Notes: a model not told the origin generated them from the sequence alone. DNA of 64,000 nucleotides from Oscillospiraceae bacterium (GCA_015069135.1 SVJE01000009.1:2033-66032); one strand, 5' to 3'. Shown: positions 14,086 through 50,744, counted from the first letter of the stretch. A program made the numbers and translations.

Positions 14086-14253
14086 AAAAGGAACCCAATC
14101 TTAATAAAAACAGCGTATTGGATTCCTTTTATTATGTTATTCCTATAAAAAAACAAGAAAAAAGGAACCCACTGCTGTAATATTTCCGGACATTGGGTTC
14201 CCTTTTTACAGAAAAATACACCCAAAAGACTGCTTTTTCTTACAATGGGTGCC
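14086..14253. repeat. Intergenic palindrome array A (3 units, core GGAACCCA..TGG(G/A)TTCC)
   Basis: Units 14090-14126, 14164-14201, 14217-14253 (37, 38, 37 bp) with unrelated centres; same core as array at 40377. Confidence 0.85.
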
Positions 14254-14262
14254 TGCCTTTAC

Positions 14263-14297
14263 AAAAAAATACCCGGACCTTACTATGAAATCCGGGT
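14263..14297 (-). terminator. Intrinsic terminator after trkH
   Basis: ACCCGGA / TCCGGGT stem followed by T run on minus strand. Confidence 0.6.
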
Positions 14298-14320
14298 GGT
14301 AAAATACCAATATTCTTTTA

Positions 14321-15763
14321 TTACTTTTTAGACCAGACAGCCGGGGACAGTGCCAAAAGCAAAGGAAAAATTTCCAATCTTCCCAAAAGCATTGCTCCGG
14401 ACAGTACAATTTTGGACAATGATGAGTATATGCTGTAATTTGCAGCCGGGCCAACTAAACTAAGACCGGGGCCGATATTATTAAAGCAAGCCGTTACTGC
14501 GGAAAAATTTGTTTCAATGTCAAAAGATTCAAAGCACAACAAACCAAACATGATACCAAACAACACAACATATAAGGCAAAATAAACTAAAACTCCGTTT
14601 TGCATTTTTTCATCAACTTTTTTACCTTCCATTTTTACGGCACCTACAGATCTTGGATGTATCATGCGCTTAAGTTCTTTCTTTATAATCTTAAACAAAA
14701 GCATTAACCTTGAAACCTTCAGACCTCCTCCTGTGGAACCGGCACATGCTCCCACAAACATAAGAAGCATTAACACAACCTTGGAAAGTCTGGGCCATAA
14801 ATCAAAATCCGCTGTAGCAAAACCTGTTGTTGTAATAATTGAAGAAACCTGGAAGGCTGATAGTCTTAAAGAATCAGCTATGTCCTGATATATAGGATAA
14901 ATATTAGCAGTAATAACTGCAATAGAAGTTCCCACTATTCCAAAGTAGCACCACACTTCACTACTCTTGAACACCGACTTGAAATGTCGAATTAACAATA
15001 AATAGTAAATATTAAAGTTCACACCAAACAGCAACATAAATATGGTAATAACCCACTGGAGGTAGTTGCTGTAGCCGGCAATACTGTCTGCTTTAATGCC
15101 AAAGCCACCGGTACCTGCAGTACCAAAAGAATGAACAACACTATCAAAAAAGGGCATTCCGCCACACAGCAATAATATTATTTCAATAACTGTCATGGCA
15201 ACATATATAAGATACAGAATTTTAGCCGTATCTTTCATTCTCGGCACCAACTTGCCTACCACCGGACCGGGAACCTCTGCACGAAGCAAATGAATTGAAC
15301 GGTCTGAGAAGTTAGGAATAATGGCCATAACAAATACAAGAACACCCATACCGCCTATCCAGTGTGTAAAGCTACGCCAGAAAAGAAGGCCTTTACTCAT
15401 AGCTTCCACATCTGTAAGTATAGAAGCACCTGTAGTTGTAAAACCGCTTACTGTTTCAAAGAAGGCGTCGATATATGAAGGAATCTCACCGCTTATGTAA
15501 AAAGGCAATGCACCGATAAGAGACATAGCTATCCATGCACCGGCAACTATCACAAAACCTTCTTTTGCATAAATAACACGGTTTTCAGTACGGAAAAGAA
15601 TCATAAGCAGTCCCCCGACCGCTAACGCAATTCCTATGGTTATAATAAAATCCATAGAACAACTTTCTCCGTATATAAAAGAAACAATCAAAGGCAACAA
15701 TAACATTGTCGCCTCTGCCATGATTATTTTACCTATTGTGTAAAACACTCTCTTACGGTTCAT
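14321..15763 (-). CDS. trkH: Trk potassium uptake membrane protein
   Basis: FFETVSGFTTTGAS, WIGGMG, TAGTGGF, ITTTGF, GSTGGGLK, NNIGPG, LGRLE. Confidence 0.96.
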   Translation of the reverse strand: MNRKRVFYTIGKIIMAEATMLLLPLIVSFIYGESCSMDFIITIGIALAVGGLLMILFRTENRVIYAKEGFVIVAGAWIAMSLIGALPFYISGEIPSYIDAFFETVSGFTTTGASILTDVEAMSKGLLFWRSFTHWIGGMGVLVFVMAIIPNFSDRSIHLLRAEVPGPVVGKLVPRMKDTAKILYLIYVAMTVIEIILLLCGGMPFFDSVVHSFGTAGTGGFGIKADSIAGYSNYLQWVITIFMLLFGVNFNIYYLLLIRHFKSVFKSSEVWCYFGIVGTSIAVITANIYPIYQDIADSLRLSAFQVSSIITTTGFATADFDLWPRLSKVVLMLLMFVGACAGSTGGGLKVSRLMLLFKIIKKELKRMIHPRSVGAVKMEGKKVDEKMQNGVLVYFALYVVLFGIMFGLLCFESFDIETNFSAVTACFNNIGPGLSLVGPAANYSIYSSLSKIVLSGAMLLGRLEIFPLLLALSPAVWSKK

Positions 15764-15777
15764 AGTCTACCTCATAA

Positions 15778-17136
15778 TTAACTCTCAAAGATGTCTGAAA
15801 GCTCACGAATCTTTTTATCCGTAGCCACCACGATCACTCTGTCGTTTGGTAAAATAACATCGTTACCGGAAGGAATCACGGGCTTGTTACGAATAATTCC
15901 TCCTAAAAGTATATTTTCCTGTATTCTTAAGTCTTTAATAGGAATATTTGTATACTTAAAGTCAGGACCAACTTTAAACTCTAAAGCTTCAGCCTTACCA
16001 TCCATAAGCTTGTATAGAGTTTCAACTTTGCTGTCCATAGAATTTTCCAAAGCTCTTGCATATCTTACAAGAATATCAGAAATTATCTTTTTAGGTGAAA
16101 CTATACAATCAAGACCAAGTTTTTCTGCCATGGAAGAAAGTTCGTTACGATTTACCTTTGAAATAACAGTAGGAACACTATGGCTGGCAGCAAATATGGA
16201 AATAAGTATGTTTTCCTCATCCATACCTGTAAGTGCAACAAAAGCATCCAACGAATCAAGACCCTCTTCCATAAGAAGTTCCTGCTGAGCACCATCACCG
16301 TGGATAATAACAGCTTTAGGAATGGCTTCACTTAAAGCATCACAACGCTCTCTTCGTTGCTCTATTATTTTAACAGAGCTACCACCGTTAATAAGTCTTC
16401 TTGCCAAATAAAAAGCAGTACGGCTACCACCTAATATCATTACATTCTTAGCCTGTTTCTGGAATATACCCAACTCCTTAAAGAACTTCTGAAATTCAGT
16501 AAGTTCTGCAGTAATTCCAATCTTGTCACCACTTTTAAGCACAAAATTACCGTCAGGAATATATACCTTGTCATCTCTCTGAACAGTACAAATCAAAATT
16601 TTTGATTTGTATTTGTGACGAAGCTGCATCAAAGACAACCCGTCCAGAATAGAGTCAGGCTTCAATTTGATTTCTATCATTTCAAAGTTTCTGTGAGAAA
16701 ATGTTTCTATTTTAACTGCAGAAGGAAACTTTAATATGTTATATAGCTCATGGGCTGCCAGAAGTTCAGGATTTATTGCCATAGAAAGACCTAAATGCTG
16801 TTTCATAAACACCAGGCTGTTATCATTATACTCAGGGCTTCTTATTCTCGCAATCGTGTGGGCTGCTCCCATTTTGCGGGCAATAAAGCAACTTAACATA
16901 TTAAACTCGTCAGAACCTGTAACTGCCACAAAAAGTTCTGCTTTATCAACACCGGCATCAGATAAAGCATCTGTGTCGGCACCATTACCGCAAACACCTA
17001 TTACATCATAAATGTTAGTAATTTCGTCTATTATGTCAGGGTTACTGTCTATAGCAACCACATCATGCCCTTCTGCAACTAAACTTGCAAGAATTGTTGT
17101 ACCTATCTTACCTAAGCCAGCAATTATGATTTTCAT
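15778..17136 (-). CDS. trkA: Trk potassium uptake regulatory subunit
   Basis: Two RCK domains (IAGLGKIG; ILGGSR), AVTGSDEFN, ALTGMDEEN. Confidence 0.96.
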   Translation of the reverse strand: MKIIIAGLGKIGTTILASLVAEGHDVVAIDSNPDIIDEITNIYDVIGVCGNGADTDALSDAGVDKAELFVAVTGSDEFNMLSCFIARKMGAAHTIARIRSPEYNDNSLVFMKQHLGLSMAINPELLAAHELYNILKFPSAVKIETFSHRNFEMIEIKLKPDSILDGLSLMQLRHKYKSKILICTVQRDDKVYIPDGNFVLKSGDKIGITAELTEFQKFFKELGIFQKQAKNVMILGGSRTAFYLARRLINGGSSVKIIEQRRERCDALSEAIPKAVIIHGDGAQQELLMEEGLDSLDAFVALTGMDEENILISIFAASHSVPTVISKVNRNELSSMAEKLGLDCIVSPKKIISDILVRYARALENSMDSKVETLYKLMDGKAEALEFKVGPDFKYTNIPIKDLRIQENILLGGIIRNKPVIPSGNDVILPNDRVIVVATDKKIRELSDIFES

Positions 17137-17231
17137 TACTATCTTCCTCTGATACTCAAAATTTATATCAGGCTTATTATACTAAATAATATCTGATAAT
17201 GCTATACCTATTGTAATATCTTAGCCAGCCC

Positions 17232-17792
17232 TTAACCGAAAGATATTATTTTTCCGCCACACTTTGTAGCTTCATCCTCATTATGGGTAACCATAATCAC
17301 AAGATTTTCTTTAGCATACTCTTTTATTATTCCATACATATTGTGCTTCAATTCTTCATCCAGGCCATTAAAAGGTTCATCCAGAAGTAAAATACCACCT
17401 CTTGCTATAGCCCTTGCCAAAGAAACTCTTCTTTGCATACCTCCGGAAAGCTGATCAGGGTATAGATCAGAATCAGCCAAAAGTTCCATTTTACCAAGTA
17501 AATCCTGTGCTTTCTTTTCTGAAACACCTGCAATCTCTGTTATATTCTCCTTAGCTGTAAGCCATGGGAAAAGTAAAGAATCCTGGAATAAAAAAGATAT
17601 TTTATCACCGATTGATATTTTACCGCTGTCGGGCTTTTCCAAGCCTGCAATCAATCTTAACAAGGTAGTTTTACCGTAGCCTGAAGGAGCCATTAAAGCA
17701 AAGACCCCACTCTCCGGAAAATCAAGAGAAATATTATCAAGCACCATTTTACCGTCAAAAGTTTTTGTAACATTTTTAAGTTCTATGCCCAC
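17232..17792 (-). CDS. NitT/TauT family ABC transporter ATP-binding protein
   Basis: APSGYGKTT, LFPWLT, LSGGMQRRV, LLDEPF. Confidence 0.88.
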   Translation of the reverse strand: MGIELKNVTKTFDGKMVLDNISLDFPESGVFALMAPSGYGKTTLLRLIAGLEKPDSGKISIGDKISFLFQDSLLFPWLTAKENITEIAGVSEKKAQDLLGKMELLADSDLYPDQLSGGMQRRVSLARAIARGGILLLDEPFNGLDEELKHNMYGIIKEYAKENLVIMVTHNEDEATKCGGKIISFG

Positions 17793-18546
17793 GGACAGCC
17801 ACCACCTTTCTGATTATGTATGCCAGTAATTTTTCGATTATAAAGCTAAGTACAATAACCACCAATGTCCATGCAAACACATCGGTTGTTTCCAGATAAA
17901 TTTTTGCTGAATATAGCTGCTCCCCTATAGAATTTTTAGGGGTACACAATACCTCTGCCGCAATTCCGGCCTTCCATCCAAGTCCAAGACCAGTAAGTAA
18001 GGCAGATGAAAAGAATGGAAGTACAGAAGGTATGTAAAGTTTTGAAATTCGCTTTGATAAAGGCATTTCGTATACTTTAGCCACCTCTTTAAGGCCTTTA
18101 TTAACTTGCTTTATACCTTGATGAACATTTCCCCACACTATAGGAAACACCATAAGAAAAGATGTGAAAGAAGGTATGTTTCCTTTATCAATCCACACAA
18201 GGGCAAGTATTATAAAAGAAGCTACCGGTGTTGCCTTAATAACTGCTGTCAATGGTGAAAAAAGTGCATTCACAGTTTCTAACCTAGAAGTTAGACACGC
18301 CATTAAAGTTCCGGCCAAAACTGCCAGAATAAAACCAAACAGTATACGAAGCACTGAGGTTCCGGTGGATATCCAGAAATCACTTGTGGCACCCAGGTCT
18401 AAAAGCCTTTTTACCACTGTAAAAGGATCTGCTACCAAAACCTCCTTATTGACAGCAAGGGCTGCTATCTCCCAGACAGCAACCCAAAAAACTGCAACTA
18501 TAAAACCTTTTAATATTTTCTTAGCCCATGTAGTAGAACGCTTCAT
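17776..18546 (-). CDS. NitT/TauT family ABC transporter permease
   Basis: TPVASFIIL, GWKAGIAAEV, multiple TMs. Confidence 0.88.
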   Translation of the reverse strand: MKRSTTWAKKILKGFIVAVFWVAVWEIAALAVNKEVLVADPFTVVKRLLDLGATSDFWISTGTSVLRILFGFILAVLAGTLMACLTSRLETVNALFSPLTAVIKATPVASFIILALVWIDKGNIPSFTSFLMVFPIVWGNVHQGIKQVNKGLKEVAKVYEMPLSKRISKLYIPSVLPFFSSALLTGLGLGWKAGIAAEVLCTPKNSIGEQLYSAKIYLETTDVFAWTLVVIVLSFIIEKLLAYIIRKVVAVRGHRT

Positions 18547-19528
18547 CAGGCATTGTTCCTCCTATGGATTTAGGATCTGCATCAAACATTACCTTTAAGA
18601 ATCCCCCTGCAGCAGACTTCATTTCATCTCCTGCCATAAATGTCATATTACATCCCGGGATAGCTTTTTTAGCCACCGGCGCTGCAGGAATAATACCATG
18701 CTTTGCTACAAGCTGGGAACCCTTTTCCACATCACCGTTTACATAGTTTATTGATGCCTCGTACTGTTTAAGGAACAAATCCAAGTCATCTTTATGATTC
18801 TCAGCAAAATCCTTGCTTACTATAATACAACCCATTGTAAGTTTACTGTTATTCTCAGCCACCTTGTCCCACTCATCAGAAAGATCAATAGCGTCTCTTA
18901 CTTCTGCATTTTTAGCTATTGTCTGTGTTACGAAAGGTTCCGGTAAAATGCCCAGGGTTACATCTCCTGAGATCATCTGAGCAGATAATTCAGCGTGTTC
19001 TGAAAGATAAACTATCTCAATGTCTTTTGCAGGATCAATACCATTTTGGGTAAGAATATAGTTAAGTGCATATTCAGGTGTAGACCCTTTACCTGTGTAA
19101 TATACTGTCTTACCTTTAAGATCACTTATAGAATTTATCGTATTGCCTTTTTCAACAACGTGAAGTGTACCCAATGTGTTAATGGCTGCAATTTTAATTT
19201 CACCTTTTGTTTTCTGATAAAGGGTAGCTGCTAAGTTTACAGGCACAGCAGCAATATCAACATTTCCTTTAATAACTTCAGGTGCAACTAGTGTAGGGTC
19301 TCCTACCAATTCGATTTCATAGCCGTCTTCCATTAACTTTGCCATGCCCATACCTGTAGGTCCTTTAAGAGCAATAATTTTTGCATCAACAGGTGTTGTA
19401 GGAACCGCTGTTGCCTCCGGTACACTTGTAGGTGCCTTTGTAGGGGCAATATCATCACCTGCTTTGTTACAAGCAACAAAGCTTAATACCATAGCTAAAG
19501 CCAATACTAACATCAATACTTTTTTCAT
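18521..19528 (-). CDS. NitT/TauT family ABC substrate-binding lipoprotein
   Basis: Lipobox FVAC; LKGPTGMG, DLKGK, LPEPFVT. Confidence 0.88.
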   Translation of the reverse strand: MKKVLMLVLALAMVLSFVACNKAGDDIAPTKAPTSVPEATAVPTTPVDAKIIALKGPTGMGMAKLMEDGYEIELVGDPTLVAPEVIKGNVDIAAVPVNLAATLYQKTKGEIKIAAINTLGTLHVVEKGNTINSISDLKGKTVYYTGKGSTPEYALNYILTQNGIDPAKDIEIVYLSEHAELSAQMISGDVTLGILPEPFVTQTIAKNAEVRDAIDLSDEWDKVAENNSKLTMGCIIVSKDFAENHKDDLDLFLKQYEASINYVNGDVEKGSQLVAKHGIIPAAPVAKKAIPGCNMTFMAGDEMKSAAGGFLKVMFDADPKSIGGTMPDEAFYYMG

Positions 19529-19547
19529 TTTGTTTATCTCCTGTCTT

Positions 19548-20216
19548 TTATTGATTGTTTATTTTAACGGTCTTACCATTTTTAATGGCAATCCCGTCAT
19601 TTTCCAATTCTTCAAAGGCTCTGTATAAAGAAGCTCTGCCCATATTAAGACTTTCCGCCAATTGCTGACAGCTTATTGGCAAAGTAACATCACCTTCTGA
19701 TACATCCTGCTGCTCCGCCAAATTCATCAGATATCTTAAAAGTTTACTTTTAGCGCTGTCTGCAGTATATGTGGCAATCTTCTTATTAAGAAACCTTATT
19801 CTGTCAGATAGAAAAGTTACATAGTTAAGCATTGCTGCCCTTTCTCTGAAAAGCAAATCTTGTATAAGGCTTTCAGAAAAAAATATAACCTTACAGTCTT
19901 TACCTGCCACAACTTTACTACAGTAGGTATTCTCTCCCCCGAACAGTGATGCTAAACCAAAAACACCATTTTCAGAAATTATGTTTATAAGAGAATCACT
20001 GTCCCCGCTGTAAGCTTTAATACTTCCTTCTGTAACTAAACCTAACTTCTTTTCAAAGCTGTCAGGTGAGAATATAACATCACCTTGGTTAAAGGTTTCT
20101 ATACTGCATCCTTCTTTGCTCATATAGCTTCCAATGGTGTGTTTATCAATTCCCTTAAAAAGAAACATATGGGATACTTTGTCTATGTAGTTTCTGATTT
20201 CCGTTTCTGTTGTCAT
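19548..20216 (-). CDS. Crp/Fnr family transcriptional regulator
   Basis: cNMP-binding fold plus C-terminal HTH LAESLNMGRASLYR. Confidence 0.9.
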   Translation of the reverse strand: MTTETEIRNYIDKVSHMFLFKGIDKHTIGSYMSKEGCSIETFNQGDVIFSPDSFEKKLGLVTEGSIKAYSGDSDSLINIISENGVFGLASLFGGENTYCSKVVAGKDCKVIFFSESLIQDLLFRERAAMLNYVTFLSDRIRFLNKKIATYTADSAKSKLLRYLMNLAEQQDVSEGDVTLPISCQQLAESLNMGRASLYRAFEELENDGIAIKNGKTVKINNQ

Positions 20217-20239
20217 TTGTTTATAGCCTTTTTAATTTT

Positions 20240-20289
20240 TGTCTCATTTAAGACACTTTTATTATATATCTATTATTTAGCTTAGTCAA
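20240..20289 (-). promoter_or_regulatory. Promoter and Crp/Fnr-type box of the crp-NitT/TauT operon
   Basis: TTGACT-17-TATAAT (20289-20261); palindrome TGTCT-N6-AGACA at 20240-20255 with CRP-box geometry. Confidence 0.6.
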
Positions 20290-20299
20290 TACAAAAATG

Positions 20300-20341
20300 T
20301 TTCATCCCTGCTTTGCAGCTTTTTGTTTTTGAGGGATGAAA
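20300..20341. repeat. Single inverted-repeat unit TTTCATCCCT-N22-AGGGATGAAA
   Basis: Perfect 10-bp arms between two divergent promoters. Confidence 0.6.
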
Positions 20342-20367
20342 AAAACACCCCCAAAAAAGCAGTTTAC

Positions 20368-20430
20368 TTGACGAACACTGAAACATGATATATAATGTAT
20401 GTTATATACCAGCTGTTATCCACGATAACA
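20368..20430 (+). promoter_or_regulatory. Promoter and candidate TetR operator
   Basis: TTGACG-17-TATAAT; palindrome TGTTATC-CAC-GATAACA at 20414-20430. Confidence 0.55.
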
Positions 20431-20478
20431 CGGGGCTTTCAGCTATATTTTACAGAAGAAAAAAGGAGCGGTTATTTA

Positions 20479-21072
20479 ATGCCCCCGGCACAGAAAATTA
20501 CTAAAGAAGCAATTAAAGAAGAAGCTTTTCGAATAGTCCAAATGAATGGTGCTGATGCACTTAATGCAAGATTACTGGCTAAAAATTTAGGGTGCTCTAC
20601 CCAACCAATATTCAGTTCATATCCAAATATGGAAGCTCTTTATGAGGATGTAATCAAAAAAGCAGAAGAACTTTACAACATTTATTTAGCAGAAGGTTTA
20701 AGAAGTGTAAACGCCCTTAAAGGTGTTGGACACTACTACATTTCCTTTGCTCAGGAAGAACCCTATCTTTTCAAGGCATTATTTATAGACGACAGTCGTG
20801 GTGAACTCCACGGAGTATTAGACGGTGATGAAAGTTACCGTAAAATTATTCGTTCCATAGAACACAACACAGGACTTCCCGTAGAAAAATGCGAAAGACT
20901 CTATTTTGAATACTGGATTTTTACCCATGGTATTGCCACAATGACAGCCACAGGAATGCTTAGTTTTACAGAAAAACAGGCAGCAAGTGTATTAGATGAT
21001 GCTTACACAGGTTTGTGGCAGAAACTATCAGGTATGTCTGAACCAGAAAACCCATACAAATATTCCAATTGA
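20479..21072 (+). CDS. TetR/AcrR family regulator (WHG-type C-terminus)
   Basis: MPP..KIT, LNAR.LAKNLGCSTQPIF HTH, WIFTHGIA; SD AAGGAG. Confidence 0.9.
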   Translation: MPPAQKITKEAIKEEAFRIVQMNGADALNARLLAKNLGCSTQPIFSSYPNMEALYEDVIKKAEELYNIYLAEGLRSVNALKGVGHYYISFAQEEPYLFKALFIDDSRGELHGVLDGDESYRKIIRSIEHNTGLPVEKCERLYFEYWIFTHGIATMTATGMLSFTEKQAASVLDDAYTGLWQKLSGMSEPENPYKYSN

Positions 21073-21095
21073 ATGAGAAAAACCTTCTATAAAGC

Positions 21096-21136
21096 AAAAA
21101 TACCCGATGAGTCCTGAAAAGCTCACGGGTGTTTTT
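21096..21136. terminator. Bidirectional terminator
   Basis: AAAAATACCCG..GAG / CTCACGGGTGTTTTT stem between convergent genes. Confidence 0.65.
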
Positions 21137-21139
21137 GTT

Positions 21140-40376: not shown

Positions 40377-40548
40377 TACACCCAAAACGATAAAAAAACA
40401 TCTTGGGTTCCCTTTTGGTCAAAAAATCGTTGATTTTGCTAAATTACAGGAACCCATACAAAACAATCCAGGGTGTTTGGATGCCTTTTTTTCTTTGTTT
40501 TTTTTAAAAAAGGAACCCAAAAGCCACTTTCTGTAACTATTGGATTCC
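40377..40548. repeat. Intergenic palindrome array B (3 units, same core as array A)
   Basis: Units 40377-40411, 40449-40485, 40512-40548 (35, 37, 37 bp). Confidence 0.85.
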
Positions 40549-40560
40549 CTTCAAATCAAA

Positions 40561-41409: not shown

Positions 41410-41410
41410 T

Positions 41411-41950: not shown

Positions 41951-41985
41951 CTTAGACTACATCTCCTGTTTAAGTTTACAAGAGA

Positions 41986-42030: not shown

Positions 42031-42042
42031 TTTGTTGATTTT

Positions 42043-43086
42043 TTAGAAAATTATGGTAAAAAGGCAACCGCCATCAAGAACATTCTCTGCCTTTATTTCA
42101 CCACCTGTTATATAAAGAATTCTTTTTACCAAAGATAGCCCAAGACCATTACCTTCCTGTTTATGAGAACTATCTCCTTGGTAAAATTTATCAAAAATAT
42201 GCTTTTTAGCTTCATCAGACAGTCCGGAACCATTGTCTCTCACTGAAAAGAATATTTTACCATCTTGCTTATACAGTCTTATCTGTACTTTACCATTTTT
42301 CGGACTGAACTTAATAGCATTACCTATTACATTATCCCATACATGATGCATTAGATTTTCACTGCCATAAAAATCCACATTTTCCAAATCTATATCAAAT
42401 TCTATGTTTTTTGCACTCCACTCAGGTTCCAAAGCCAGAATAGACTGTCTGATTTGCTCATCCAGCCTGAACATGATTTTATTTGTATTTATTGTTTGGT
42501 TTTCTATTTTTGAAAGCAACAAAATATTTCCTACCAGAGAAGACAGCCTTTTGGTATTAAAAAGAATCTTTTCCACATACTCCTTTTGTTCCGGATCTCC
42601 ACTGTAATCCTGCAACAGTGTGGCGTAGCCCTCTATGGCATTTATAGGGGTTTTAAATTCATGAGATACATTAGAAACAAAATCAGACTGGAGTATTTCC
42701 GTTGCTTCCAGTTCCTGTACCATCATATTAAAACCGGCAAACATTTCCTGCATTTCCAATGAAGATGACTTCGTCTGAAGTCTTACGGTAAAATCTCCTT
42801 CTGAAACCTTCCCCATTCCTTCTCTCAACTTCTTAACAGGATCAAAAAACACTTTCGCAAACAGCCTTGTAGCAATGGCCACAAATATCAGACTGAAAAA
42901 ACCAATCTGAATAAATTCCGGCACTTTATGTAAAACAGGAAACAACCAACCAAGAAGTTGTACAATGCCAAAAGCTATTCCGAAGCTTAGCAAAAGTGCT
43001 ACTGTAACTAAAACTGTAAGTCTGGCCTTAAGGGAAAACTTTATTTTTCTGTTTTTAAACTCATAGAAATGGTCTTTCGCTTTCAT
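42043..43086 (-). CDS. HAMP-domain sensor histidine kinase
   Basis: SNVSHEFKTP H-box, NAIKFS, DNGSG, FDKFYQ, GNGLGL. Confidence 0.95.
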   Translation of the reverse strand: MKAKDHFYEFKNRKIKFSLKARLTVLVTVALLLSFGIAFGIVQLLGWLFPVLHKVPEFIQIGFFSLIFVAIATRLFAKVFFDPVKKLREGMGKVSEGDFTVRLQTKSSSLEMQEMFAGFNMMVQELEATEILQSDFVSNVSHEFKTPINAIEGYATLLQDYSGDPEQKEYVEKILFNTKRLSSLVGNILLLSKIENQTINTNKIMFRLDEQIRQSILALEPEWSAKNIEFDIDLENVDFYGSENLMHHVWDNVIGNAIKFSPKNGKVQIRLYKQDGKIFFSVRDNGSGLSDEAKKHIFDKFYQGDSSHKQEGNGLGLSLVKRILYITGGEIKAENVLDGGCLFTIIF

Positions 43087-43754
43087 ATTTTAACCACCTT
43101 ATAGCCAACACCTCTCATGGTTACTATTTTGAAATCTTCATTTGTACGAAAGCGATCTCTCAGTCTTCCTATATGTACATCAACAGTGTGAGTATCACTG
43201 TCAGATTCATATCCCCACACATCATCCATTAGTTGTTGTCTGGTAAATATTTTACCGGGATAAGAAGCCATTTTGTACAAAAGCATAAATTCCTTCTGAG
43301 GCAGCACCACTGTCTCAGAAGGAGTTTTTACACTGAATGTGTCACACTCTAATATGGTATTTCCCATTGTAATTCTACGATCATTAATCATTTGTGCCCT
43401 TCTTAATAAAGCACCTACTCTAAGTACCATTTCGTTTACATTAACAGGTTTCACCATGTAATCATCGGTTCCGGATAAAAAGCCTAATCGCATATCATCA
43501 AAAGCATCTTTAGCAGTAATCATCATAACCGGAGTAGTATTTCCGGCATCTCTAAGACTTCTCACCAATTCATAACCATCCGTTACCGGCATCATAATAT
43601 CAGATATGATAAGGTCAAAATATTCTTTTTCTATAGCGTCGAGAGCTTCTTTACCATCTGCAACTTCAGTTACTATGTAACCTTGTTTAATAAGCACATG
43701 AGCAAACAGTCTTCTTAATTCGCGATCATCTTCTGCAATCAGTATCTTCAGCAT
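43083..43754 (-). CDS. OmpR-family response regulator
   Basis: IAEDD, DIMMP, ITAK, DDYMVKP, winged-helix TVDVHI.RLR; start trimmed to MLKI. Confidence 0.95.
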   Translation of the reverse strand: MLKILIAEDDRELRRLFAHVLIKQGYIVTEVADGKEALDAIEKEYFDLIISDIMMPVTDGYELVRSLRDAGNTTPVMMITAKDAFDDMRLGFLSGTDDYMVKPVNVNEMVLRVGALLRRAQMINDRRITMGNTILECDTFSVKTPSETVVLPQKEFMLLYKMASYPGKIFTRQQLMDDVWGYESDSDTHTVDVHIGRLRDRFRTNEDFKIVTMRGVGYKVVKI

Positions 43755-43764
43755 AGTTGTCACC

Positions 43765-43813
43765 TTTCATGTTATCTACATGAAATGATACTTGTGACAA
43801 AAAAACATGTCAA
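43765..43813 (-). promoter_or_regulatory. Promoter of two-component operon with downstream palindrome
   Basis: TTGACA-17-TATCAT (43813-43785); TTTCATGT-N5-ACATGAAA at 43765-43785. Confidence 0.6.
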
Positions 43814-45387
43814 GTCAAACCTTTATCTGCAAGAATACTTTCAGCTTTCATTCTGGGGAAAGTTATCTTCCAGATGGATTCGGTTGTTTCCTCTGTTTTA
43901 TAGGTCGAAGCAATTAAATAAAGCTTGTTGCAAACTCGATTATAAACCCAGTCATCCTTATCTGCTTTTTTGTCTGTAAAATCAGTACCCTGTTTCTCAT
44001 CATAATATTCTGCCAGTTTAATCATAGCCGGCACTGCAGCATCTCCCAGTTCATATAAAGATTCCACATCTATAATATCTGTCTTTCCTGAAACATATCT
44101 TTCCACATTGTAATTTGCGATTATATTTTCCACATTGGAAAAGGCCAATCCTCCGAAAGCAACTATCAGAACAAGAACGGAAACAGCAATAACCTTAACT
44201 TTATTTACAAACTGCTTTATTACCAGCAAAACAAAAATCAAAGTCAGTACCAACATAAACCAGGTAGCATAAATTCTCTTCTGAGTAAGTCCGTAAACAT
44301 CAATATACAATACCATTTTAGAAATTGCAGTAGCAATTAAAATCAAAGTAAAAACGGAAAAAACAGTAACCAGTACTTTCTGAATTATACTTGGCTTTGC
44401 AGTTTCGCGGCACATAAACATGGAGATTACAATCAGTATTATAAAATTAATTACAGAAACAGTGCAAAGTTGGAAAAATCCTTCTCTGGCATATTCTGCG
44501 TAAATTGTATCCACCGGTAAAATACCTTTGAATCCCGAAACATAGTATTGCCACTGAGAAATAAAGAAAATTATATAAACAATCAGAACAGGTAGTGTTG
44601 CAGCAATTATTGTACTTACAGGTGCTTTTTTTGCTTTCATTGAAGCATTGCGACAGCTTTCTGCTACCATAATATCTTTTGTTTTATTTTCCACTGAAGA
44701 GAAAAATATTCCATACGCATACATTCCAACAGGAACACCAAATGTAATGCAAAAAATATCAGAGAAAACATCCCAATCTGCAAATATCTTGTCAATTATA
44801 TTACTGAAATTGCTGTCATAAGAAAGCAACACCACAATTACTACTGTAGGTATGATAGCAATAGCCACACCCAACAACACCTTAAGTACAACTTTGCCTC
44901 TACCTTTTTCACTGCTGGAAAAAGCCGCAGGGAATATATACCCTAAAGACATAAAAGGAACGATAAACAGTATTTTAAAGAAGTCTATCAGTATAAGATC
45001 GCTTAACCCTTTTTCGGTCTGATTTCCAAAGGCTATATACATAAAATAGCCATAAGCTAACAGGCAATACATATATGAAAAAAACTGTATTGTAGCATTG
45101 GAAGTAACAACCATTGATGCAGACATGAGCAATGCTGACCCTGCTACCAAATAAGCATTTAAGCCTAAAGTAGCTTTTTTCACCTTAACAACCACAAAAC
45201 TTGTAATAATTAAAGCTACTATAAACAAGAAAGCGCCTAAAGGATTTTCCGCTGCAGAAAAAACCTTACAAAACCCATAACCTATTACAAAGCATAACCA
45301 AGCATAGGCTATTTCAACTTTTGAAAATTTGCGTACAGCTCCCAAGGACTGATGGTTCTCCTCCAGCCAAGTTACGTTATTGTCCAT
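43810..45387 (-). CDS. DUF4173/DUF4153-like multi-pass membrane protein
   Basis: YAEYAREGFFQL, KMVLYIDVYGLT.KR motifs; many TMs. Confidence 0.8.
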   Translation of the reverse strand: MDNNVTWLEENHQSLGAVRKFSKVEIAYAWLCFVIGYGFCKVFSAAENPLGAFLFIVALIITSFVVVKVKKATLGLNAYLVAGSALLMSASMVVTSNATIQFFSYMYCLLAYGYFMYIAFGNQTEKGLSDLILIDFFKILFIVPFMSLGYIFPAAFSSSEKGRGKVVLKVLLGVAIAIIPTVVIVVLLSYDSNFSNIIDKIFADWDVFSDIFCITFGVPVGMYAYGIFFSSVENKTKDIMVAESCRNASMKAKKAPVSTIIAATLPVLIVYIIFFISQWQYYVSGFKGILPVDTIYAEYAREGFFQLCTVSVINFIILIVISMFMCRETAKPSIIQKVLVTVFSVFTLILIATAISKMVLYIDVYGLTQKRIYATWFMLVLTLIFVLLVIKQFVNKVKVIAVSVLVLIVAFGGLAFSNVENIIANYNVERYVSGKTDIIDVESLYELGDAAVPAMIKLAEYYDEKQGTDFTDKKADKDDWVYNRVCNKLYLIASTYKTEETTESIWKITFPRMKAESILADKGLT

Positions 45388-45403
45388 TCTTAACAACTCC
45401 TTT

Positions 45404-45607
45404 TTATTCTTTTATATATTCGATGATATCTTCAACTTTACAGTCAAGTGCTTCACATATGGCTTCTAAAGTTGAGAACCTTATAGCCTTAGCTTTGTTG
45501 TTTTTTAATATAGAAAGATTAGCAAGTGTAATACCTACTTTTTCCGACAATTCATTAAGAGACATTTTTCTTTTTGCCATCATTACATCAAGGTTAATCA
45601 CTATCAT
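45404..45607 (-). CDS. XRE-family HTH regulator (YozG-like)
   Basis: GITLANLSILKNNKAKAIRFSTLEAICEALDC. Confidence 0.92.
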   Translation of the reverse strand: MIVINLDVMMAKRKMSLNELSEKVGITLANLSILKNNKAKAIRFSTLEAICEALDCKVEDIIEYIKE

Positions 45608-45618
45608 ACTCGCACCTC

Positions 45619-46077
45619 TCAGATGGTAAAATCATTTTCTGCTTTTATCCGTGTAGCTTCTTCAATTACATTTTTCACTACTCTTAAACTTATTCCAAAG
45701 AATATACAGGCAAAAGATACAAAGAAGGAAATATAGAAATATATACCCAAAAGTGCGAACACGGGGCAAAGAATCATTGCACACCAGGAAATACATCTTA
45801 TGTATGCAACACTCTTAACTGTGAAAACTTTGCCTTCCTTTACCAGTTTCAAAAGTCTGAACAAAAATACGTCCGCCAAGGCCATAATTAACAAAATCAA
45901 ATAAGCAAGAACAATTATAAAAATTCTTGCACTCTGTGTTTCAACTTTATGAATCAAATCAATAAATATATTTGCCTGTGTTGGCATTATAACTGCACCT
46001 GCTATAAGCACAATGAAAAAGAGCACTGACAAAGCAAGTGAAATCATAACTGATACTTTCGAAGGTATTTTTAACAT
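45619..46077 (-). CDS. DUF2975-like membrane protein
   Basis: 4 TM, VFT..SV..IR.I, C-terminal KAENDFTI; directly upstream of YozG-like gene. Confidence 0.85.
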   Translation of the reverse strand: MLKIPSKVSVMISLALSVLFFIVLIAGAVIMPTQANIFIDLIHKVETQSARIFIIVLAYLILLIMALADVFLFRLLKLVKEGKVFTVKSVAYIRCISWCAMILCPVFALLGIYFYISFFVSFACIFFGISLRVVKNVIEEATRIKAENDFTI

Positions 46078-46144
46078 ATAGATTACCGCCTTTTGTATTT
46101 TCACGACTATAATATACCATCTTTTTTTGTTTGTCAATACTTTT

Positions 46145-46161
46145 TTATTGTTTTTCGATAA
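46145..46161. promoter_or_regulatory. Candidate operator of the DUF2975-HTH operon
   Basis: Palindrome TTATTG-N5-CGATAA just upstream of a TTGACA -35 on minus strand. Confidence 0.5.
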
Positions 46162-46165
46162 ATTT

Positions 46166-46903
46166 TTATTTATTTACATATTCAACAAAGTCCTGACGAC
46201 TTCCATTGAAGACATTCATGTCAATATATTTTTCCTCTCCGTTATAGCCACCCAAAGTTTCTCTGTTAGTATACTGCCAGAATGTCCACTTCTTTCCATC
46301 GGACAGTTTAGGTTTTGCCACCACATCTCTTATCCATATATCGTACTCTTTATAATCTTCCGAAAAAAACTTCTCATAAAAATCTTCTGTAGTATAAATT
46401 ATCGGCTTTTTATTGTAATGGTTCTCAAGAATATCTAACATAGATTTAAGCTCTTTTGAAAGATTCTCTCTGGTAGGAGTGTTTTTACTTTTGTAGTACT
46501 CCACATCTATCACCGGCGGCAACATGTCATCATAGCCTTCAACAGTATTTATAAAGTTCTCTGCCTGTGTCTCACCGGCACTGTCAAAACTGAAAAAGTG
46601 ATATGCACCTGCATAAAGTTTTGTTTTTCTTGCTTCTTCATAGTTGTAGTCAAAACATATATCTTTGTGACTACTTCCTTCAGTAGCTTTTATAAATGCA
46701 AAATCAATGCCTTGGGAAGCCAAAACTTGCCAATCAATTTTACCCTGATAGCGGGAAACATCCACACCTCTTACCGGGTACTTATTCCTTGATGGATTAT
46801 TAAGCTGAATTACGCCATTCCACAATAATACAGCCAATACGCCGCCACATACCGCTAAAGCAGTAAAAACAATAAGCAATTTAAGCCACAGTTTCTTTTT
46901 CAC
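46166..46903 (-). CDS. GH25 family lysozyme/muramidase, membrane anchored
   Basis: GVDVSRYQG.IDW, FIKATEG, GAYHFF, PPVIDVE, WTFWQY, IDMN. Confidence 0.92.
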   Translation of the reverse strand: MKKKLWLKLLIVFTALAVCGGVLAVLLWNGVIQLNNPSRNKYPVRGVDVSRYQGKIDWQVLASQGIDFAFIKATEGSSHKDICFDYNYEEARKTKLYAGAYHFFSFDSAGETQAENFINTVEGYDDMLPPVIDVEYYKSKNTPTRENLSKELKSMLDILENHYNKKPIIYTTEDFYEKFFSEDYKEYDIWIRDVVAKPKLSDGKKWTFWQYTNRETLGGYNGEEKYIDMNVFNGSRQDFVEYVNK

Positions 46904-46905
46904 AT

Positions 46906-48297
46906 TCAATTCTCCTTCCGGTTTAAAGGATTCCATTTCCCTCTTACAAAAGTAATAAGATACATAACAAACAGCAATAGATTATGTGCAATCATACAGG
47001 CCCAGGCAGAAATCAAATCCAGACCCAATAAGTTTATGCATATAAATGTGCCTATAATACGAATGCCCCACATACCTATAACATTATAAACAAAAGGCTG
47101 TCTAGTCTTTCCTACTCCCTGCATCATACCCTCAATTACAATAGGAAGTCCATAAAAAGGTTCTGATACTGCCACCATTCTTAATACCGTTATACCCAAA
47201 GTCATAACTTCTTTGTTATCTGCAAAGAGACTTACAAGCCAAGGAGCCATAAAGAAAAGAGCAGCCCCTGATAATGTCATTAATATTATCTCTATAGGCA
47301 AAAACATATTTGCTATAGATTTCATTCGCTTGTTATCTTTTGCTCCGTATGCATTTCCGGTCAGTGTGGCTGCCGCAGCCTGCATTCCGTATCCCGGAAT
47401 GTAAAATGCTGACTCTACTGTATTAGCCACTGTGTGGGCCGCTGTGGATACCTCTCCTAAAGAATTAATCATAGCCGCGAAGGCAACATAGCCCAAAGTG
47501 GTGGCAAAACGCTGTAACATATTAGGAAGTGCTATTCTTAGACAGGGCTTTAATATGGTTTTATCAGGTTTTAAAGAGTATCCCTTAGGTGAAACCATTT
47601 TATGATTCCATAGAGCTACTGTAATCAATATACCACCAACAAAAAATGCTATGGCACTGGCTGTTGCCGCTCCAATTACACCAAAACCTGCTCCGGGTAT
47701 TGTAACGAGAGCTGAAAAACATTTTACCGTTCGGGTTTCATATATAAGGAAGAAGTTCAATACCACGTTTATAACATTTACCAAAGCCCCAACTTTCATA
47801 GGTGTTTTAGTATCGCCTGCAGCTCTTAACACTGTGCCAAAAATAGCAGTAGCAGCCCTTGGCAGCATTGGCATATATAATATAAAAAAGTATTGGGACG
47901 TTATAATTCTGATATTGGGGTCCACCTGCATAAGAGTTGGTATGTAGGGACTTACGCTCAATAGAATAATAGTAAATAAAACCCCTGATATAAGAGTCAC
48001 AAGTACTGATTGAGCTGTAGTTTTTTTAGCACTTTCCCTATCTCCTGCACCACATGCTTTGGCAATGTAAGAAAGAAAACCTATACCTAATGCCGTAGTT
48101 GTACTATTAACAAGCCAACCTAATGTGGTTGTAGCACCCACTGCCGCAGTGGCATAGGTACCTAAACTTCCCACCATTGCAGTATCTATATATTGAACCG
48201 CTGTTTGCATAACCTGCTCTAAAATAGTAGGCCAGGCCAGGGATAAAATTATACCAATAGTGGTCCATTTGCTTTTTTCAGTAAAATTTTTATTCAT
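46906..48297 (-). CDS. MATE family efflux transporter
   Basis: DTAMVG.LG, LRAAGDTKTPM, GAATA, 12 TM. Confidence 0.92.
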   Translation of the reverse strand: MNKNFTEKSKWTTIGIILSLAWPTILEQVMQTAVQYIDTAMVGSLGTYATAAVGATTTLGWLVNSTTTALGIGFLSYIAKACGAGDRESAKKTTAQSVLVTLISGVLFTIILLSVSPYIPTLMQVDPNIRIITSQYFFILYMPMLPRAATAIFGTVLRAAGDTKTPMKVGALVNVINVVLNFFLIYETRTVKCFSALVTIPGAGFGVIGAATASAIAFFVGGILITVALWNHKMVSPKGYSLKPDKTILKPCLRIALPNMLQRFATTLGYVAFAAMINSLGEVSTAAHTVANTVESAFYIPGYGMQAAAATLTGNAYGAKDNKRMKSIANMFLPIEIILMTLSGAALFFMAPWLVSLFADNKEVMTLGITVLRMVAVSEPFYGLPIVIEGMMQGVGKTRQPFVYNVIGMWGIRIIGTFICINLLGLDLISAWACMIAHNLLLFVMYLITFVRGKWNPLNRKEN

Positions 48298-48319
48298 GTG
48301 CTTAATTATACAGGATTTT

Positions 48320-48540
48320 TTACACTGACAAAAGTCTTTGTTTTTTAATTTTTGTCAGTAATTACACTGACTTGTATTCCAACATTTCATTGTTTAGCAG
48401 TGTAAAATCCGGAAAAACATAAATATTTAAGAGTTTTAAGGCTGTTTGGAATCAATTTACACTGACAAAGTTTTTACATCTAAGTTAAATATCAGTGTAA
48501 TTACTGACAAATCAATGCAAAAAACACAAAATAGCAGTAA
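48320..48540. repeat. Intergenic palindrome array C (4 units, core ACTGAC..CAGT)
   Basis: ACTG..CAGT spans 48324-48359, 48366-48401, 48461-48496, 48503-48538, all 36 bp; gaps 6, 59, 6. Confidence 0.9.
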
Positions 48541-48546
48541 CAACTT

Positions 48547-49677
48547 TTACACACCGGAAACTATTTTTACCAAAAACATCACACCCAGCAATAGAATCAA
48601 AAAACCATAATTAAATGCTGAAAACAAAAAAACATAGTGCCTTGATTTACCGGGATTATGACTCATATATTCACGATATGTAATCAAACTGGCAAGAGAA
48701 GCTATAAGACTTCCTACTCCACCAATGTTAACACCAATAAGCAAATCCCTATAATTTTCAGTAAACTGTGATAGCAACACTGCAGATGGTACGTTACTTA
48801 TAACCTGGCAAGACAAAGTACTGAACAATAACGTACTCTTATTAAGTAAAAACGAAAACACATCCCTTACCACATCAATACGGCTCATATTGCCGGCAAA
48901 CACAAAGAAAAACACAAATGTAAGCAACAGCGGGTAATCCACCATTTTGAGGGCCCGCCAGTCCATGAATAAAAGCACAACAGGAATCACAATCAAGCCT
49001 ACTCCATATGGAATACCTCTGAATACAATTGCAATTGATAAAGCAAAAAGGATCAGATATATAATAGTTCTTGCCGGCGGAAGTTTTCTTTCTATAGGAT
49101 TTATCTCTAATGCGTCCTTTTTCACAAAAACAAAGCAACACACTGTTATCAATAACACTGACACTGCAAAAGGAATTACCATTATTCCCATAAAGTCCAT
49201 AGTGGGAATGTTAAATTTCGTATAAAGATAAAGATTCTGTGGATTTCCGAAAGGTGTCAACATCCCACCTAAGTTAGCTGCAATATTTTGCATAATAAAG
49301 GTAAAAGCCATGTATTTTTCTTTTTGGGTAGAACTTAAGACAAAATATCCCAAAGGCAGAAAAGTCAAAAGCGCCATATCATTGGCAATAAGCATGGATC
49401 CTATAAAAGTTATGTACACCAAAGCAAGAATGCTCATACGTGCATTTTTAAAACATTTTACAATTTTCTGTGCAATCAGATAGAAGAATCTTATATTTTT
49501 AAGAGCACACACCACTGCCAATACGCAAAAAAGGCAGGTCAGCGTCTTAAAATCAAAATAGCCTAAATACTCCCTGTCAGGTGGTACGAAAAACATGGTT
49601 ACGATCGCAGCCAGAAAGGCTATACACATTACCACGTTGGTTTTTATAAAGTTTTTGATAAAATTCAAAAATTTCAT
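48547..49677 (-). CDS. Ion-transporter superfamily anion permease (CitMHS/SLC13/ArsB-like)
   Basis: SMLIAND, AANLGGMLTPFGNPQNLYL, ISNVP, NIGG.G.LIASLA. Confidence 0.82.
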   Translation of the reverse strand: MKFLNFIKNFIKTNVVMCIAFLAAIVTMFFVPPDREYLGYFDFKTLTCLFCVLAVVCALKNIRFFYLIAQKIVKCFKNARMSILALVYITFIGSMLIANDMALLTFLPLGYFVLSSTQKEKYMAFTFIMQNIAANLGGMLTPFGNPQNLYLYTKFNIPTMDFMGIMVIPFAVSVLLITVCCFVFVKKDALEINPIERKLPPARTIIYLILFALSIAIVFRGIPYGVGLIVIPVVLLFMDWRALKMVDYPLLLTFVFFFVFAGNMSRIDVVRDVFSFLLNKSTLLFSTLSCQVISNVPSAVLLSQFTENYRDLLIGVNIGGVGSLIASLASLITYREYMSHNPGKSRHYVFLFSAFNYGFLILLLGVMFLVKIVSGV

Positions 49678-50456
49678 TTCCACAAATTCTCCGGGATTTC
49701 TCTATGTTCTAAAAATATATCACTTTCTGCCCCAAGGAAGATTTTCAGAATTAAATCACGGCATTTACCGGCATCCACTACTCTTACGATAGCATCTCCT
49801 ATTTTACCGAAATACTGACAACCCATTTCAGTCAGAGGCCTATCAAAATTGGTAAAATACTGAGACACATCATCAGTCTCTGTACAATAGTGTGGTCTGT
49901 TTCTCACCCATTCTTCCTTACCGTGGGAATTTATAATTTTAACTTCATAAGCTTCTCCAATACGATTTGGAAGTTTCGCTCTTTCTTCCACAGAATGTAT
50001 AAAAGTATTTTTGTTATTGCCAACACCAATAAGTAAAATCTTAGCACCAATATCTCCCAGCTTATCCCAGAAATATCCTACTGCTCCCGGGGTATGAGCA
50101 TATTCCTCATTTTTAGTAAGCTCCTCAGCCATTTTACCATGCACCCATACAGAGTGCGTAGGATGAAGAGATCTTATGCCATCTTTACGGAAAGCTGCAG
50201 TACGTGGCACTACACCAATATTAGGAACAGTCTTTCTTACATCAAAAACATTGTTATCTTTATTAATAACACCCCATGTATGGGTAGGTACTATAAAAGT
50301 ACCCTCTGATAAATATTCGCAAAAAACATCAATAAAACCATCAGGACCCTCTTCTACGTCTCCCACTGCTTTGAAAGATGTGTGAATCAGTACTATGTCG
50401 TTTGGTAAAATTCCCAGTTCTTTAAGTTGTTTTTTAATTTCTGTCTTAGTAATCAT
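49674..50456 (-). CDS. AAC(3)-family N-acetyltransferase
   Basis: VLIHTSFKAVG, VPTHTW, RSLHPTHS, ILLIGVG...NTFIH..EE; start trimmed to MITK. Confidence 0.88.
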   Translation of the reverse strand: MITKTEIKKQLKELGILPNDIVLIHTSFKAVGDVEEGPDGFIDVFCEYLSEGTFIVPTHTWGVINKDNNVFDVRKTVPNIGVVPRTAAFRKDGIRSLHPTHSVWVHGKMAEELTKNEEYAHTPGAVGYFWDKLGDIGAKILLIGVGNNKNTFIHSVEERAKLPNRIGEAYEVKIINSHGKEEWVRNRPHYCTETDDVSQYFTNFDRPLTEMGCQYFGKIGDAIVRVVDAGKCRDLILKIFLGAESDIFLEHREIPENLWK

Positions 50457-50509
50457 AACAGCAGTAATTATGCCACAAAGAAGACATGGGTGCAATAACC
50501 GCGGTGGAA

Positions 50510-50744
50510 TCGCCGACAAAATTAAAAAATTCGTAATTTGTCGGTGAAAGTATAAAAAACTCGCCGATAATTACACTTGTACAGCATATTCGTCGGCGAC
50601 TTTTTAGATAAAATTGGCTTTTTTAGCCCGTTTGTAACCCATACAAGCCAAAAGTCGCCGACAAAGTTCTCAATCATAATCGTCTGTCGGCGAAAAAATG
50701 TACAAGTCGTCGACAAGTCTGCAAAACTCTCTTTTTGTCGGCGA
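50510..50744. repeat. Intergenic palindrome array D (4 units, core TCGCCGACAA..TTGTCGGCGA)
   Basis: Units 50510-50547, 50561-50599, 50655-50693, 50707-50744 (38, 39, 39, 38 bp); gaps 13, 55, 13. Confidence 0.9.

Follow-up and report, generated by a model that had tools for sequence, protein, structure and literature searches.

Arrays of inverted-arm repeats and an adjacent family of nuclease-like genes in an Oscillospiraceae genome

Repeat arrays in the window

The window considered here is a stretch of 64,000 nucleotides from Oscillospiraceae bacterium (GCA_015069135.1 SVJE01000009.1:2033-66032), part of a 1.9-Mb metagenome assembly (G000) of an uncultured gut or rumen member of the Clostridia, with 11 contigs, 37% GC and a completeness of 92.7%. 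It harbors intergenic arrays of short units, each built of two inverted arms of 7-12 bp that enclose a center of fixed length. An original prediction, made from the sequence of the window alone, had placed such units at five sites, and inverted arms were confirmed at all five (Table 1). Four of these sites are members of genome-wide repeat families that exceed chance expectation by far, and arrays of this kind are also found beside an unannotated family of nuclease-like genes.

At site 1, 74 bp lie between unit centers. The array at site 3 is flanked by a MatE gene and a CitMHS gene, and beside site 4, where unit centers are 51.5, 94 and 51.5 bp apart, there is a promoter-like site for a melibiase-like gene (50753-50781). 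Contigs of two other sequencing runs agree with the assembly over the arrays at sites 2 to 4 without any difference, and we therefore do not regard these arrays as assembly artefacts; the segment 40381-40898 at site 2 is spanned by a contig of run X8 with 0 differences. The four sequencing runs compared are low-coverage copies of the same strain.

The single palindrome at site 5 had been counted as a family member, a claim that did not hold. Its arm is not enriched genome-wide (24 occurrences against approximately 44 expected), and it sits between the -35 boxes of two divergent promoters (20261-20396, each an 11/12 match) belonging to a Crp-family gene and a TetR-family gene. We treat it as a separate feature, unrelated to the repeat families and perhaps a candidate operator.

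Table 1. Positions and arms of the window sites, of the paralogous genes with their adjacent arm families, and of family F copies. Sites 1 to 5 are given in window coordinates; entries with a contig prefix (C1 to C9) refer to assembly G000.
Feature	Position	Arm family	Units or arms	Remarks
Site 1 array	14090..14253	A/A2 (core ACCCA ... TGGGT)	3 units	between trkH and a small open reading frame
Site 1 unit 1	14090-14126	A/A2	GGAACCCAA-N19-TTGGATTCC	
Site 1 unit 2	14164-14201	A/A2	GGAACCCAC-N20-TTGGGTTCC	
Site 1 unit 3	14217-14253	A/A2	TACACCCA-N21-TGGGTGCC	
Site 2 array	40377..40548	A/A2	3 units: 40377-40411, 40449-40485, 40512-40548	unit 40377-40411 is a hybrid with arms TACACCCA ... TGGGTTCC
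Site 3 array	48320..48540	B	4 units: 48320-48361, 48362-48405, 48457-48500, 48500-48540	arms TTACACTGAC ... GTCAGTGTAA, plus variants of TTACTGCTAA type
Site 4 array	50510..50744	C	4 units: 50510-50547, 50561-50599, 50655-50693, 50707-50744	pattern AAAAS-TCGCCGACAA-N18/19-TTGTCGGCGA-STTTT
Site 5, single palindrome	20300..20341		TTTCATCCCT-N22-AGGGATGAAA	
Arms of family A/A2		A/A2	GGAACCCAA or TACACCCAA	ACCCA core common to both
Paralog	C4:195044-195787	B	TTACACTGAC	arms as in window array 48320..48540
Paralog	C6:49672-50418	C	TCGCCGACAA	array at 3' end of gene; arms as in window array 50510..50744
Paralog	C7:192686-193435	D	ACAGTGTTT	
Paralog	C2:140211-140954	E	TGGGTTGG ... CCAACCCA	
Paralog	C9:11876-12625	G/H	CCAACCT or CCTACCT	
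Paralog	C6:64110-64868	I	CCACCC	
Paralog	C1:48878-49630	F	longer nested element (CCCCTAAC)	
Family F copies	G000:C1:48640-48900, C2:153220-153470, C7:244340-244600, C3:9280-9470, C9:48280-48470, C2:15430-15700	F		

Repeat families across the genome

A strict detector was applied, in which at least two units within 250 bp had to resemble each other in arms and in gap. It returned 28 unit pairs, at 16 loci, in the whole genome and 0 pairs in each of two locally shuffled genomes; the further copies that had been anticipated are thus present. Genome-wide, TCGCCGACAA occurs 22 times against approximately 1.5 expected, clusters of all three main arm words are also found on other contigs, and the family A pattern yields 12 units (reversed-pattern control, 0). 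An unbiased scan of inverted 8-mers showed a broad excess at gaps of 5-26 bp and revealed further families.

The gap is constant to within 1 bp inside each family, as a fixed geometry would have it, but no single geometry serves all families because the span varies from approximately 30 to 45 bp between them. Arm orientation alternates along arrays. The A and A2 arms (GGAACCCA and TACACCCA) are mixed inside single units as well as inside arrays, and ACCCA is therefore taken as their shared core.

A BLAST comparison among 52 array segments detected similarity beyond the arms in only two pairs. In one, from family E, the two arrays are homologous copies of ~150 bp, centers included; the other, from family F, shows 90% identity across 173 bp. 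Arrays of families A-D at separate loci have their arms alone in common, and on these grounds miniature inverted-repeat transposable elements (MITEs) were rejected as an explanation, since MITE copies are alike over their whole length, interior included, and carry target-site duplications.

Family F consists of nested inverted-repeat elements of ~170-250 bp with outer arms CCCCTAACT and inner arms GGGGAAATACCCTA. These elements are MITE-like in look, and one copy adjoins a nuclease-like paralog.

The longest run of units, at G000:C7:125740-126403 (locus L020 ~11540-12200), comprises at least 12 family C units, repeated directly and in tandem every 51-53 bp, and fills a 900-bp divergent spacer that separates a GH3 gene from a NAGPA-domain gene. 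Its units belong to two alternating subtypes with degenerate right arms and similar centers. The run looks like a recent tandem expansion, and long arrays grow, in our reading, through tandem duplication.

Unit spacing and centers

The distances between neighboring unit centers cluster at 41-43, 50-53, 62.5-63, 74-75, 84, 93-95 and 104-106 bp. For 40 such distances, a period of 10.3-10.4 bp gave a vector strength of 0.86, a value reached by 0 of 5000 random sets, and the result is unchanged when the 20 distinct distance values are used; the 12-unit tandem array on contig C7 was left out of the test. A phasing of 10.4 bp points to a feature of double-stranded DNA. The centers, which the original prediction had described as unconserved, indeed proved so in the BLAST comparison, and their folding energies relative to shuffled centers (mean z of -0.7 to +0.2 per family) indicate no pairing beyond chance. 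An exact ACCCA/TGGGT core is present in 27 non-coding units; the outer bases are complementary at three positions in 14 of these and at no position in 5. Unpaired centers, hybrid arms and helical phasing together mark the repeats as sites that act as double-stranded DNA, not as RNA.

These observations bear directly on an alternative in which the units are RNA hairpins, serving as terminators or as mRNA stabilisers of the repetitive extragenic palindromic (REP) type, with the neighboring gene family being coincidental or involved in RNA processing. The A-rich left flanks and T-rich right flanks of the units would suit such a role, as would the predicted stems of -5 to -20 kcal/mol that are possible and the gene 3' end that stands on at least one side of 22 of 24 arrays. 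However, the loops would be 14-25 nt long and without pairing beyond chance, the stem is broken by hybrid arms, two arrays lie between divergent genes, and helical phasing would be meaningless for RNA. Furthermore, trkH has a classic terminator of its own (14297-14271, minus strand) between the gene and the site 1 array, so that this array is not the trkH terminator, and a comparison of the window with Rfam at the gathering score matched only two tRNAs. We consider RNA hairpins very improbable.

Several well-known repeat classes were likewise set aside, in agreement with the original prediction, which had excluded CRISPR arrays, integron attC sites and ordinary terminators. An intrinsic terminator consists of a GC-rich stem, a loop of 3-8 nt and a T run, and a CRISPR locus has cas genes and direct repeats, 23-50 bp long, separated by unique spacers. 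A terminator scan listed no array unit except for the junction at 48354-48371. As for CRISPR, the arms alternate, and no cas gene was present among the 105 flanking proteins scanned, a genome-wide cas search not having been made.

Genomic context of the arrays

No array was found inside any gene with a family match. Out of 24 arrays, 18 are situated between co-directional, 4 between convergent and 2 between divergent genes, and the earlier impression that the sites lie just upstream of gene starts does not extend to a general link. The neighbors are unrelated housekeeping genes, including tyrS, pheT, dnaE, nrdDG, fusA, priA, spoIIE, HU, PFK and PTS, and the Pfam matches of 29 window proteins and 76 flanking proteins reveal no common functional theme; a regulon was accordingly rejected.

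It could be argued that the units are operators of ordinary transcription factors, with one regulon per arm family and no relation to the nuclease-like genes, given that inverted half-sites at fixed spacing in several phased copies are typical of cooperative repressors and that promoter-like sites abut some arrays. Yet the flanking genes lack both a shared function and a recurrent regulator gene, arrays reach 12 units, the families are species-specific, and the pairing with nuclease-like genes in several genomes would be left unexplained. Such operators have, in our judgment, scarcely any likelihood.

A transposase of the HUH type, as in the REP-associated tyrosine transposases (RAYTs), had been named first among the candidate partner enzymes. 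The genome does carry three IS200-like Y1 transposase (Y1_Tnp) genes, but their flanks contain no such arrays, and a RAYT link was rejected for this genome; the genes that do adjoin the arrays encode a protein of the PD-(D/E)xK type.

A paralogous gene family adjacent to the arrays

Self-comparison of all open reading frames, followed by a six-frame profile search, identified an unannotated family of ~250-amino-acid proteins with exactly seven paralogs in the genome. Each of these lies within ~300 bp of an array, according to pairing by eye, and the adjacent arms differ between paralogs (Table 1). A blind, medium-strict detector placed an array at most 300 bp away from five of the seven (P per gene 0.03, binomial 5e-7). 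A gene family repeatedly flanked by such arrays, which had been proposed as something to look for, is therefore present here, with homologs in other Clostridia too. The neighbors of two of the paralogs (L024 and L032), as determined by a Pfam scan of these two loci, are SpoIIE, BioY, a glycosyltransferase and a GH4 enzyme.

Upstream of six of the seven paralogs a promoter-like motif is found, TTCGACGGACA followed 17-20 nt on by -10 boxes of GATATAGT type (for example G000:C6:50440-50520 and C4:194950-195040), which suggests common control of the paralogs. A tRNA-like sequence stands between the family B array and its paralog at G000:C4:194870-194950 (locus L139 ~1070-1150), and the longest open reading frame call of that paralog is therefore 60 codons too long.

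Predicted structure of the protein

A comparison of the protein with Pfam and NCBIfam returned nothing above curated cut-offs, with weak hints of Bax1-type nucleases. Its last 120 residues match PD-DEXK models of PADLOC, namely PDC-S68 (down to 8e-32) and, more weakly, HEAT_CxxC_PD-DEXK and PDC-S69. Across 111 aligned sequences, E143, Y159, P172, D173, F174, E188, G191 and Y197 are invariant, and H189 is near-invariant.

In the AlphaFold model (pLDDT 94.5, pTM 0.82), a helix at residues 3-28 is followed by strands at 33-39, 42-51 and 54-60, a second helix at 66-106 and then an alpha/beta domain. The N-terminal half is thus predicted to be a long hairpin of helices that bears a sheet of three strands at its tip, ahead of a putative PD-(D/E)xK nuclease domain. 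In an all-against-all structure search, the best match of the C-terminal domain was TnsA (1t0f_A, Z 9.1, root-mean-square deviation 3.2, 111 aligned), and next came the catalytic domain of I-Bth0305I (3r3p_B, Z 8.8, root-mean-square deviation 2.8, 89 aligned) and Bax1 (Z 7.9). Foldseek found no match in the Protein Data Bank (PDB) at E <= 0.001, its weak rows again being PD-(D/E)xK nucleases, and a sequence search of PDB chains gave coiled-coil noise only. For the N-terminal half, the fold search returned only generic long-helix and helical-hairpin matches (Z ~8).

The structural model also supports a homodimer. The predicted pair scored 0.57 against 0.02 for the best control. Of proteins solved as pairs, 20 of 30 attain the score mark used, as does 1 of 23 solved as single chains; three runs gave 100% contact agreement with a partner pLDDT of at least 88. 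The predicted interface involves residues 2-18 and 81-99, at the base of the hairpin.

The nuclease domain is also found at the ends of proteins of ~940-1240 amino acids (for example G196:C48:5279-5599 and G152:C69:62550-62870), and precomputed Pfam data assign UvrD_C_2 and viral helicase domains to two shorter homologs. Together with the PDC-S68 match, this implies that the domain is shared with candidate defence helicase-nucleases.

Genes and arrays in other genomes

With a cut-off of E <= 0.001, the profile of the family matched 7848 cluster representatives, and with E <= 1e-10 the number was 5048; all those that carry a source name are listed as 'hypothetical protein' of Clostridia. The distribution of the gene is patchy and multi-copy, as 59 of the 399 scored genomes of the class have a match, many of them with at least six copies. 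No relative of the protein family was detected in the viral contigs searched.

Arrays accompany the homologs as well. At 47 homolog loci (112 kb, other genomes), an array was located within 1 kb of 21, where 2.8 were expected from a background of 1.15 Mb (Poisson 4e-12). These arrays are similar in look to those of the window's genome, with periods of 51-53, 60-65, 73 and 81-83 bp. Pairing of gene and array is seen in three genomes in addition to these many loci. A search of G395 with the gene-adjacent arms TCAACAGA-N20-TCTGTTGA gave 27 units, distributed over 6 loci (control 0), and adjacent arms differ in all four paralogs examined. For G004, the corresponding arms are GTTTCTGC-N25-GCAGAAAC, with 15 units in total at 6 loci (control 0); an array adjoins four of six paralogs, in one case on either side of the gene.

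At the loci L155 and L212, the gene is bracketed by arrays on both sides. In L155 (a GTDB record of a Firmicutes metagenome-assembled genome), near-identical direct segments of ~240 bp, at 4620-4860 and 5843-6060, bracket the homolog, and each holds two GACAGAC-N24-GTCTGTC units. These segments could be the limits of a mobile unit.

The arm families themselves are confined to single lineages. Family A arms were found in none of 45 other genomes of the order, and family C arms occur at control level in 40 of them. The region downstream of one orthologous gene in genus g76 was free of arrays in 8 of the 11 other species. A filled/empty comparison at the array on contig C8 of G395 gave no insertion boundary, because the genes that flank it are not neighbors in other g76 species. 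A metagenome scan with the CitMHS protein yielded relatives of at most 76% identity, and in 879 kb of the corresponding DNA the only strict-detector match was a coding tandem repeat.

Relation to known systems

No description of the gene-array pairing was found in the literature, supplementary files lying outside the search, and 'DUF6788' returned 0 papers. The closest parallel is offered by REP sequences and RAYTs. A REP repeat is itself an imperfect palindrome, short and rich in GC, with a stem-loop fold, and a RAYT is a Y1 HUH (IS200/IS605-like) transposase. REPs, bacterial interspersed mosaic elements (BIMEs) and REP doublets forming hairpins (REPINs) are described as short intergenic repeats with several classes per genome, each beside its own enzyme gene (Nunvar et al. 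2010, PMC2817692; Bertels and Rainey 2011, PMC3116915). Gene and repeat are further described as co-varying and species-specific, and the copies as regularly spaced and alternating, with an inverted doublet around a less conserved spacer as the replicative unit (PMC2817692, PMC3116915).

Class-specific pairing of gene and repeat, species specificity and intergenic alternating arrays were each looked for and found here. In contrast to RAYTs, the enzyme is of PD-(D/E)xK type with a helical-hairpin N-terminal half and is not a Y1 HUH transposase. Unlike REPs, the arms are not palindromes, the center is unpaired and kept in length only, 5 of the 27 ACCCA-core units are hybrid-armed, spacing follows the DNA helical repeat, and copies number in the tens, not the hundreds. 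With neither a Y1 transposase nor stem-loop repeats involved, the arrays fall outside the REP/RAYT system. To our knowledge, RAYT transposases are the only known kind of partner enzyme of REP-type repeats, and we know of no origin for most small repeats of Firmicutes.

As regards the enzyme, I-Bth0305I is described as the prototypic EDxHD homing endonuclease (Taylor et al. 2011, PMC3239194). It is a homodimer of several domains whose footprint covers ~60 bp of a pseudo-palindromic site; it reads a 14-bp core where it cleaves, and its gene resides in a phage group I intron (PMC3239194). Genes of EDxHD homing endonucleases are housed in a self-splicing intron or intein, or at their own disrupted target. 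The present protein has a similar fold in its catalytic domain and a predicted homodimeric state. It differs in that sequence similarity is undetectable, that the genes are free-standing, chromosomal and located between ordinary genes with intact units beside them, and that the conserved bases lie at the outer arms. As for a possible kinship with the Vsr-like fold of the EDxHD enzymes, the fold match has a Z of 8.8, and the present family has invariant E143, D173 and E188 and a near-invariant H189.

TnsA, the endonuclease subunit of Tn7 and a mobile-element nuclease, works together with neighboring TnsB and TnsC genes and with transposon ends. Its similarity to the present protein is in the fold of the C-terminal domain; the N-terminal half differs, the two scanned paralog loci have no TnsB/TnsC-type neighbors, nor are the repeats transposon ends bearing sites of TnsB type. 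Dimeric nucleases of FokI type, and pairs of transcription activator-like effector nucleases (TALENs) or zinc-finger nucleases (ZFNs), use inverted recognition sites around a spacer of set length where the nuclease domains meet. The likeness to these is one of geometry only, given that the recognition domain differs and that cleavage in the center of the present units is putative.

Interpretation and proposed mechanism

We propose that the arrays are REP/RAYT-like, dispersed, lineage-specific repeats and that each arm family is the putative cognate DNA site of one paralogous dimeric nuclease, a reading to which we assign a probability of roughly 0.6. The original prediction had offered two alternatives for what it saw as one undescribed class, either binding platforms for paralogous proteins or REP/MITE-like elements with sequence-specific subfamilies. 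The idea of a class is supported, and the existence of an array-flanked paralog family merges the two alternatives, as the arrays would be REP-type dispersed repeats and also the likely binding sites of paralogous proteins. The repeats, their geometry and phasing, and their pairing with the genes are observed, and the nuclease fold and the dimer are predicted. The link between gene and array is one of adjacency; binding, the ruler, cleavage and mobility are inferred.

In the proposed mechanism, two long helical hairpins of the dimer would meet at their bases, with the sheet tips pointing apart. Tip separation, estimated from helix lengths, would be several tens of angstroms, comparable in order to the 22-34 bp that separate the arm centers. 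The two sheet tips may read the two inverted arms, the helical hairpins serving as a ruler, and the nuclease domains would lie near the center of the dimer, over the unit center, in a geometry resembling that of FokI. With tips on the arms and the hairpin as ruler, the center would be kept in length and free in sequence. Units that are whole helical turns apart would place bound dimers on one face of the DNA, where they could touch or interact. Gene and repeats might then co-evolve and spread within the genome as a selfish or half-domesticated system, like REP/BIME and RAYT. Consistent with this, gene and arrays co-vary in a close relative of the same family (G001), where only a broken copy of the gene remains and no array was found in the 275 kb sampled.

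Several observations weigh against this proposal. Two of the seven local gene-array pairings were made by eye alone, and the assembly, which is 92.7% complete, contains no paralog proper to family A/A2, to which two of the window arrays belong. Arrays of family E share the ACCCA core and the core spacing with A/A2, and the family E paralog on contig C2 may, at a guess, serve A/A2 as well through this core. In other genomes, 26 of the 47 homolog loci are without an array by the detector, and some periods (60, 61, 65, 81 and 83 bp) are not whole turns. With the medium-strict detector, G000 has an overall density of 0.020 per kb, similar to the 0.025 per kb of the background; the background itself may contain such arrays, or false hits. 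Arm spacing shows no clear relation to protein length, in that spacing varies by as much as ~14 bp from family to family but the paralogs are of much the same length. If the nuclease is active, the tens of intact sites in the genome that encodes it would call for some form of control. Likeness of the arms alone, finally, is not explained by simple copy-paste of whole units and fits selection of sites in place. The arrays of families A-D could either be old, with their arms kept by selection, or have had their arms renewed by an unnamed process.

Selection in place is what would be expected if the arrays were host-kept binding platforms, immobile and served by domesticated paralogs with an architectural or regulatory role such as looping, insulation or supercoil barriers. 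Under this alternative, conserved arms with centers and linkers randomised across loci, unit spacing that tracks the helical repeat and the intergenic position of the arrays would all be readily understood, and the promoter-like motif at six of the seven paralogs hints at common control. Against it, the flanking genes are functionally unrelated and form no regulon, four arrays have convergent genes on their two sides, two are recent copies, and the catalytic-type residues are invariant. Moreover, the absence of the arm families elsewhere in the order and of an array at the orthologous gene in most g76 species, as well as the patchy, multi-copy gene, is difficult to reconcile with a host function. 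We regard such platforms as rather unlikely, and retain the reading of dispersed repeats with cognate nucleases.

More tentatively, and as a claim we would hold to be possible but somewhat short of probable, the system may represent a widespread, undescribed class of repeats and enzymes in Bacillota. Its enzyme would be a dimeric 'ruler' nuclease, with a hairpin spacer, a sheet reader and a PD-(D/E)xK domain, that recognizes arms 20-35 bp apart and acts on the unconstrained center, and its paralogs would diversify in arm specificity, each seeding helically phased arrays. If true, these would be natural long-spacer, sequence-specific nucleases with swappable specificity, and if the arms alone are renewed while centers turn over, their spread would be unlike every described transposon, REP or homing mechanism.

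The unnamed family of 7848 representatives hereby gains a testable role, a DNA partner and a structural rationale. The paralogs are a natural set with different DNA specificities on one scaffold, useful for working out a recognition code and possibly for nucleases with distant half-sites. Part of the intergenic 'dark matter' in gut and rumen Clostridia is also explained, and the arrays provide a marker for fast genome change between close species.

Additional observations

The polarity of A-tracts in family C centers showed only a weak trend with gene direction and GC skew. The genome further contains a separate family of GC-rich hairpins of AAGACGGGGGTCAGACCCCCGTCTT type, located at G000:C4:6514, 11465 and 166872, at C7:2092, 70031, 90073 and 91655, and at other positions.

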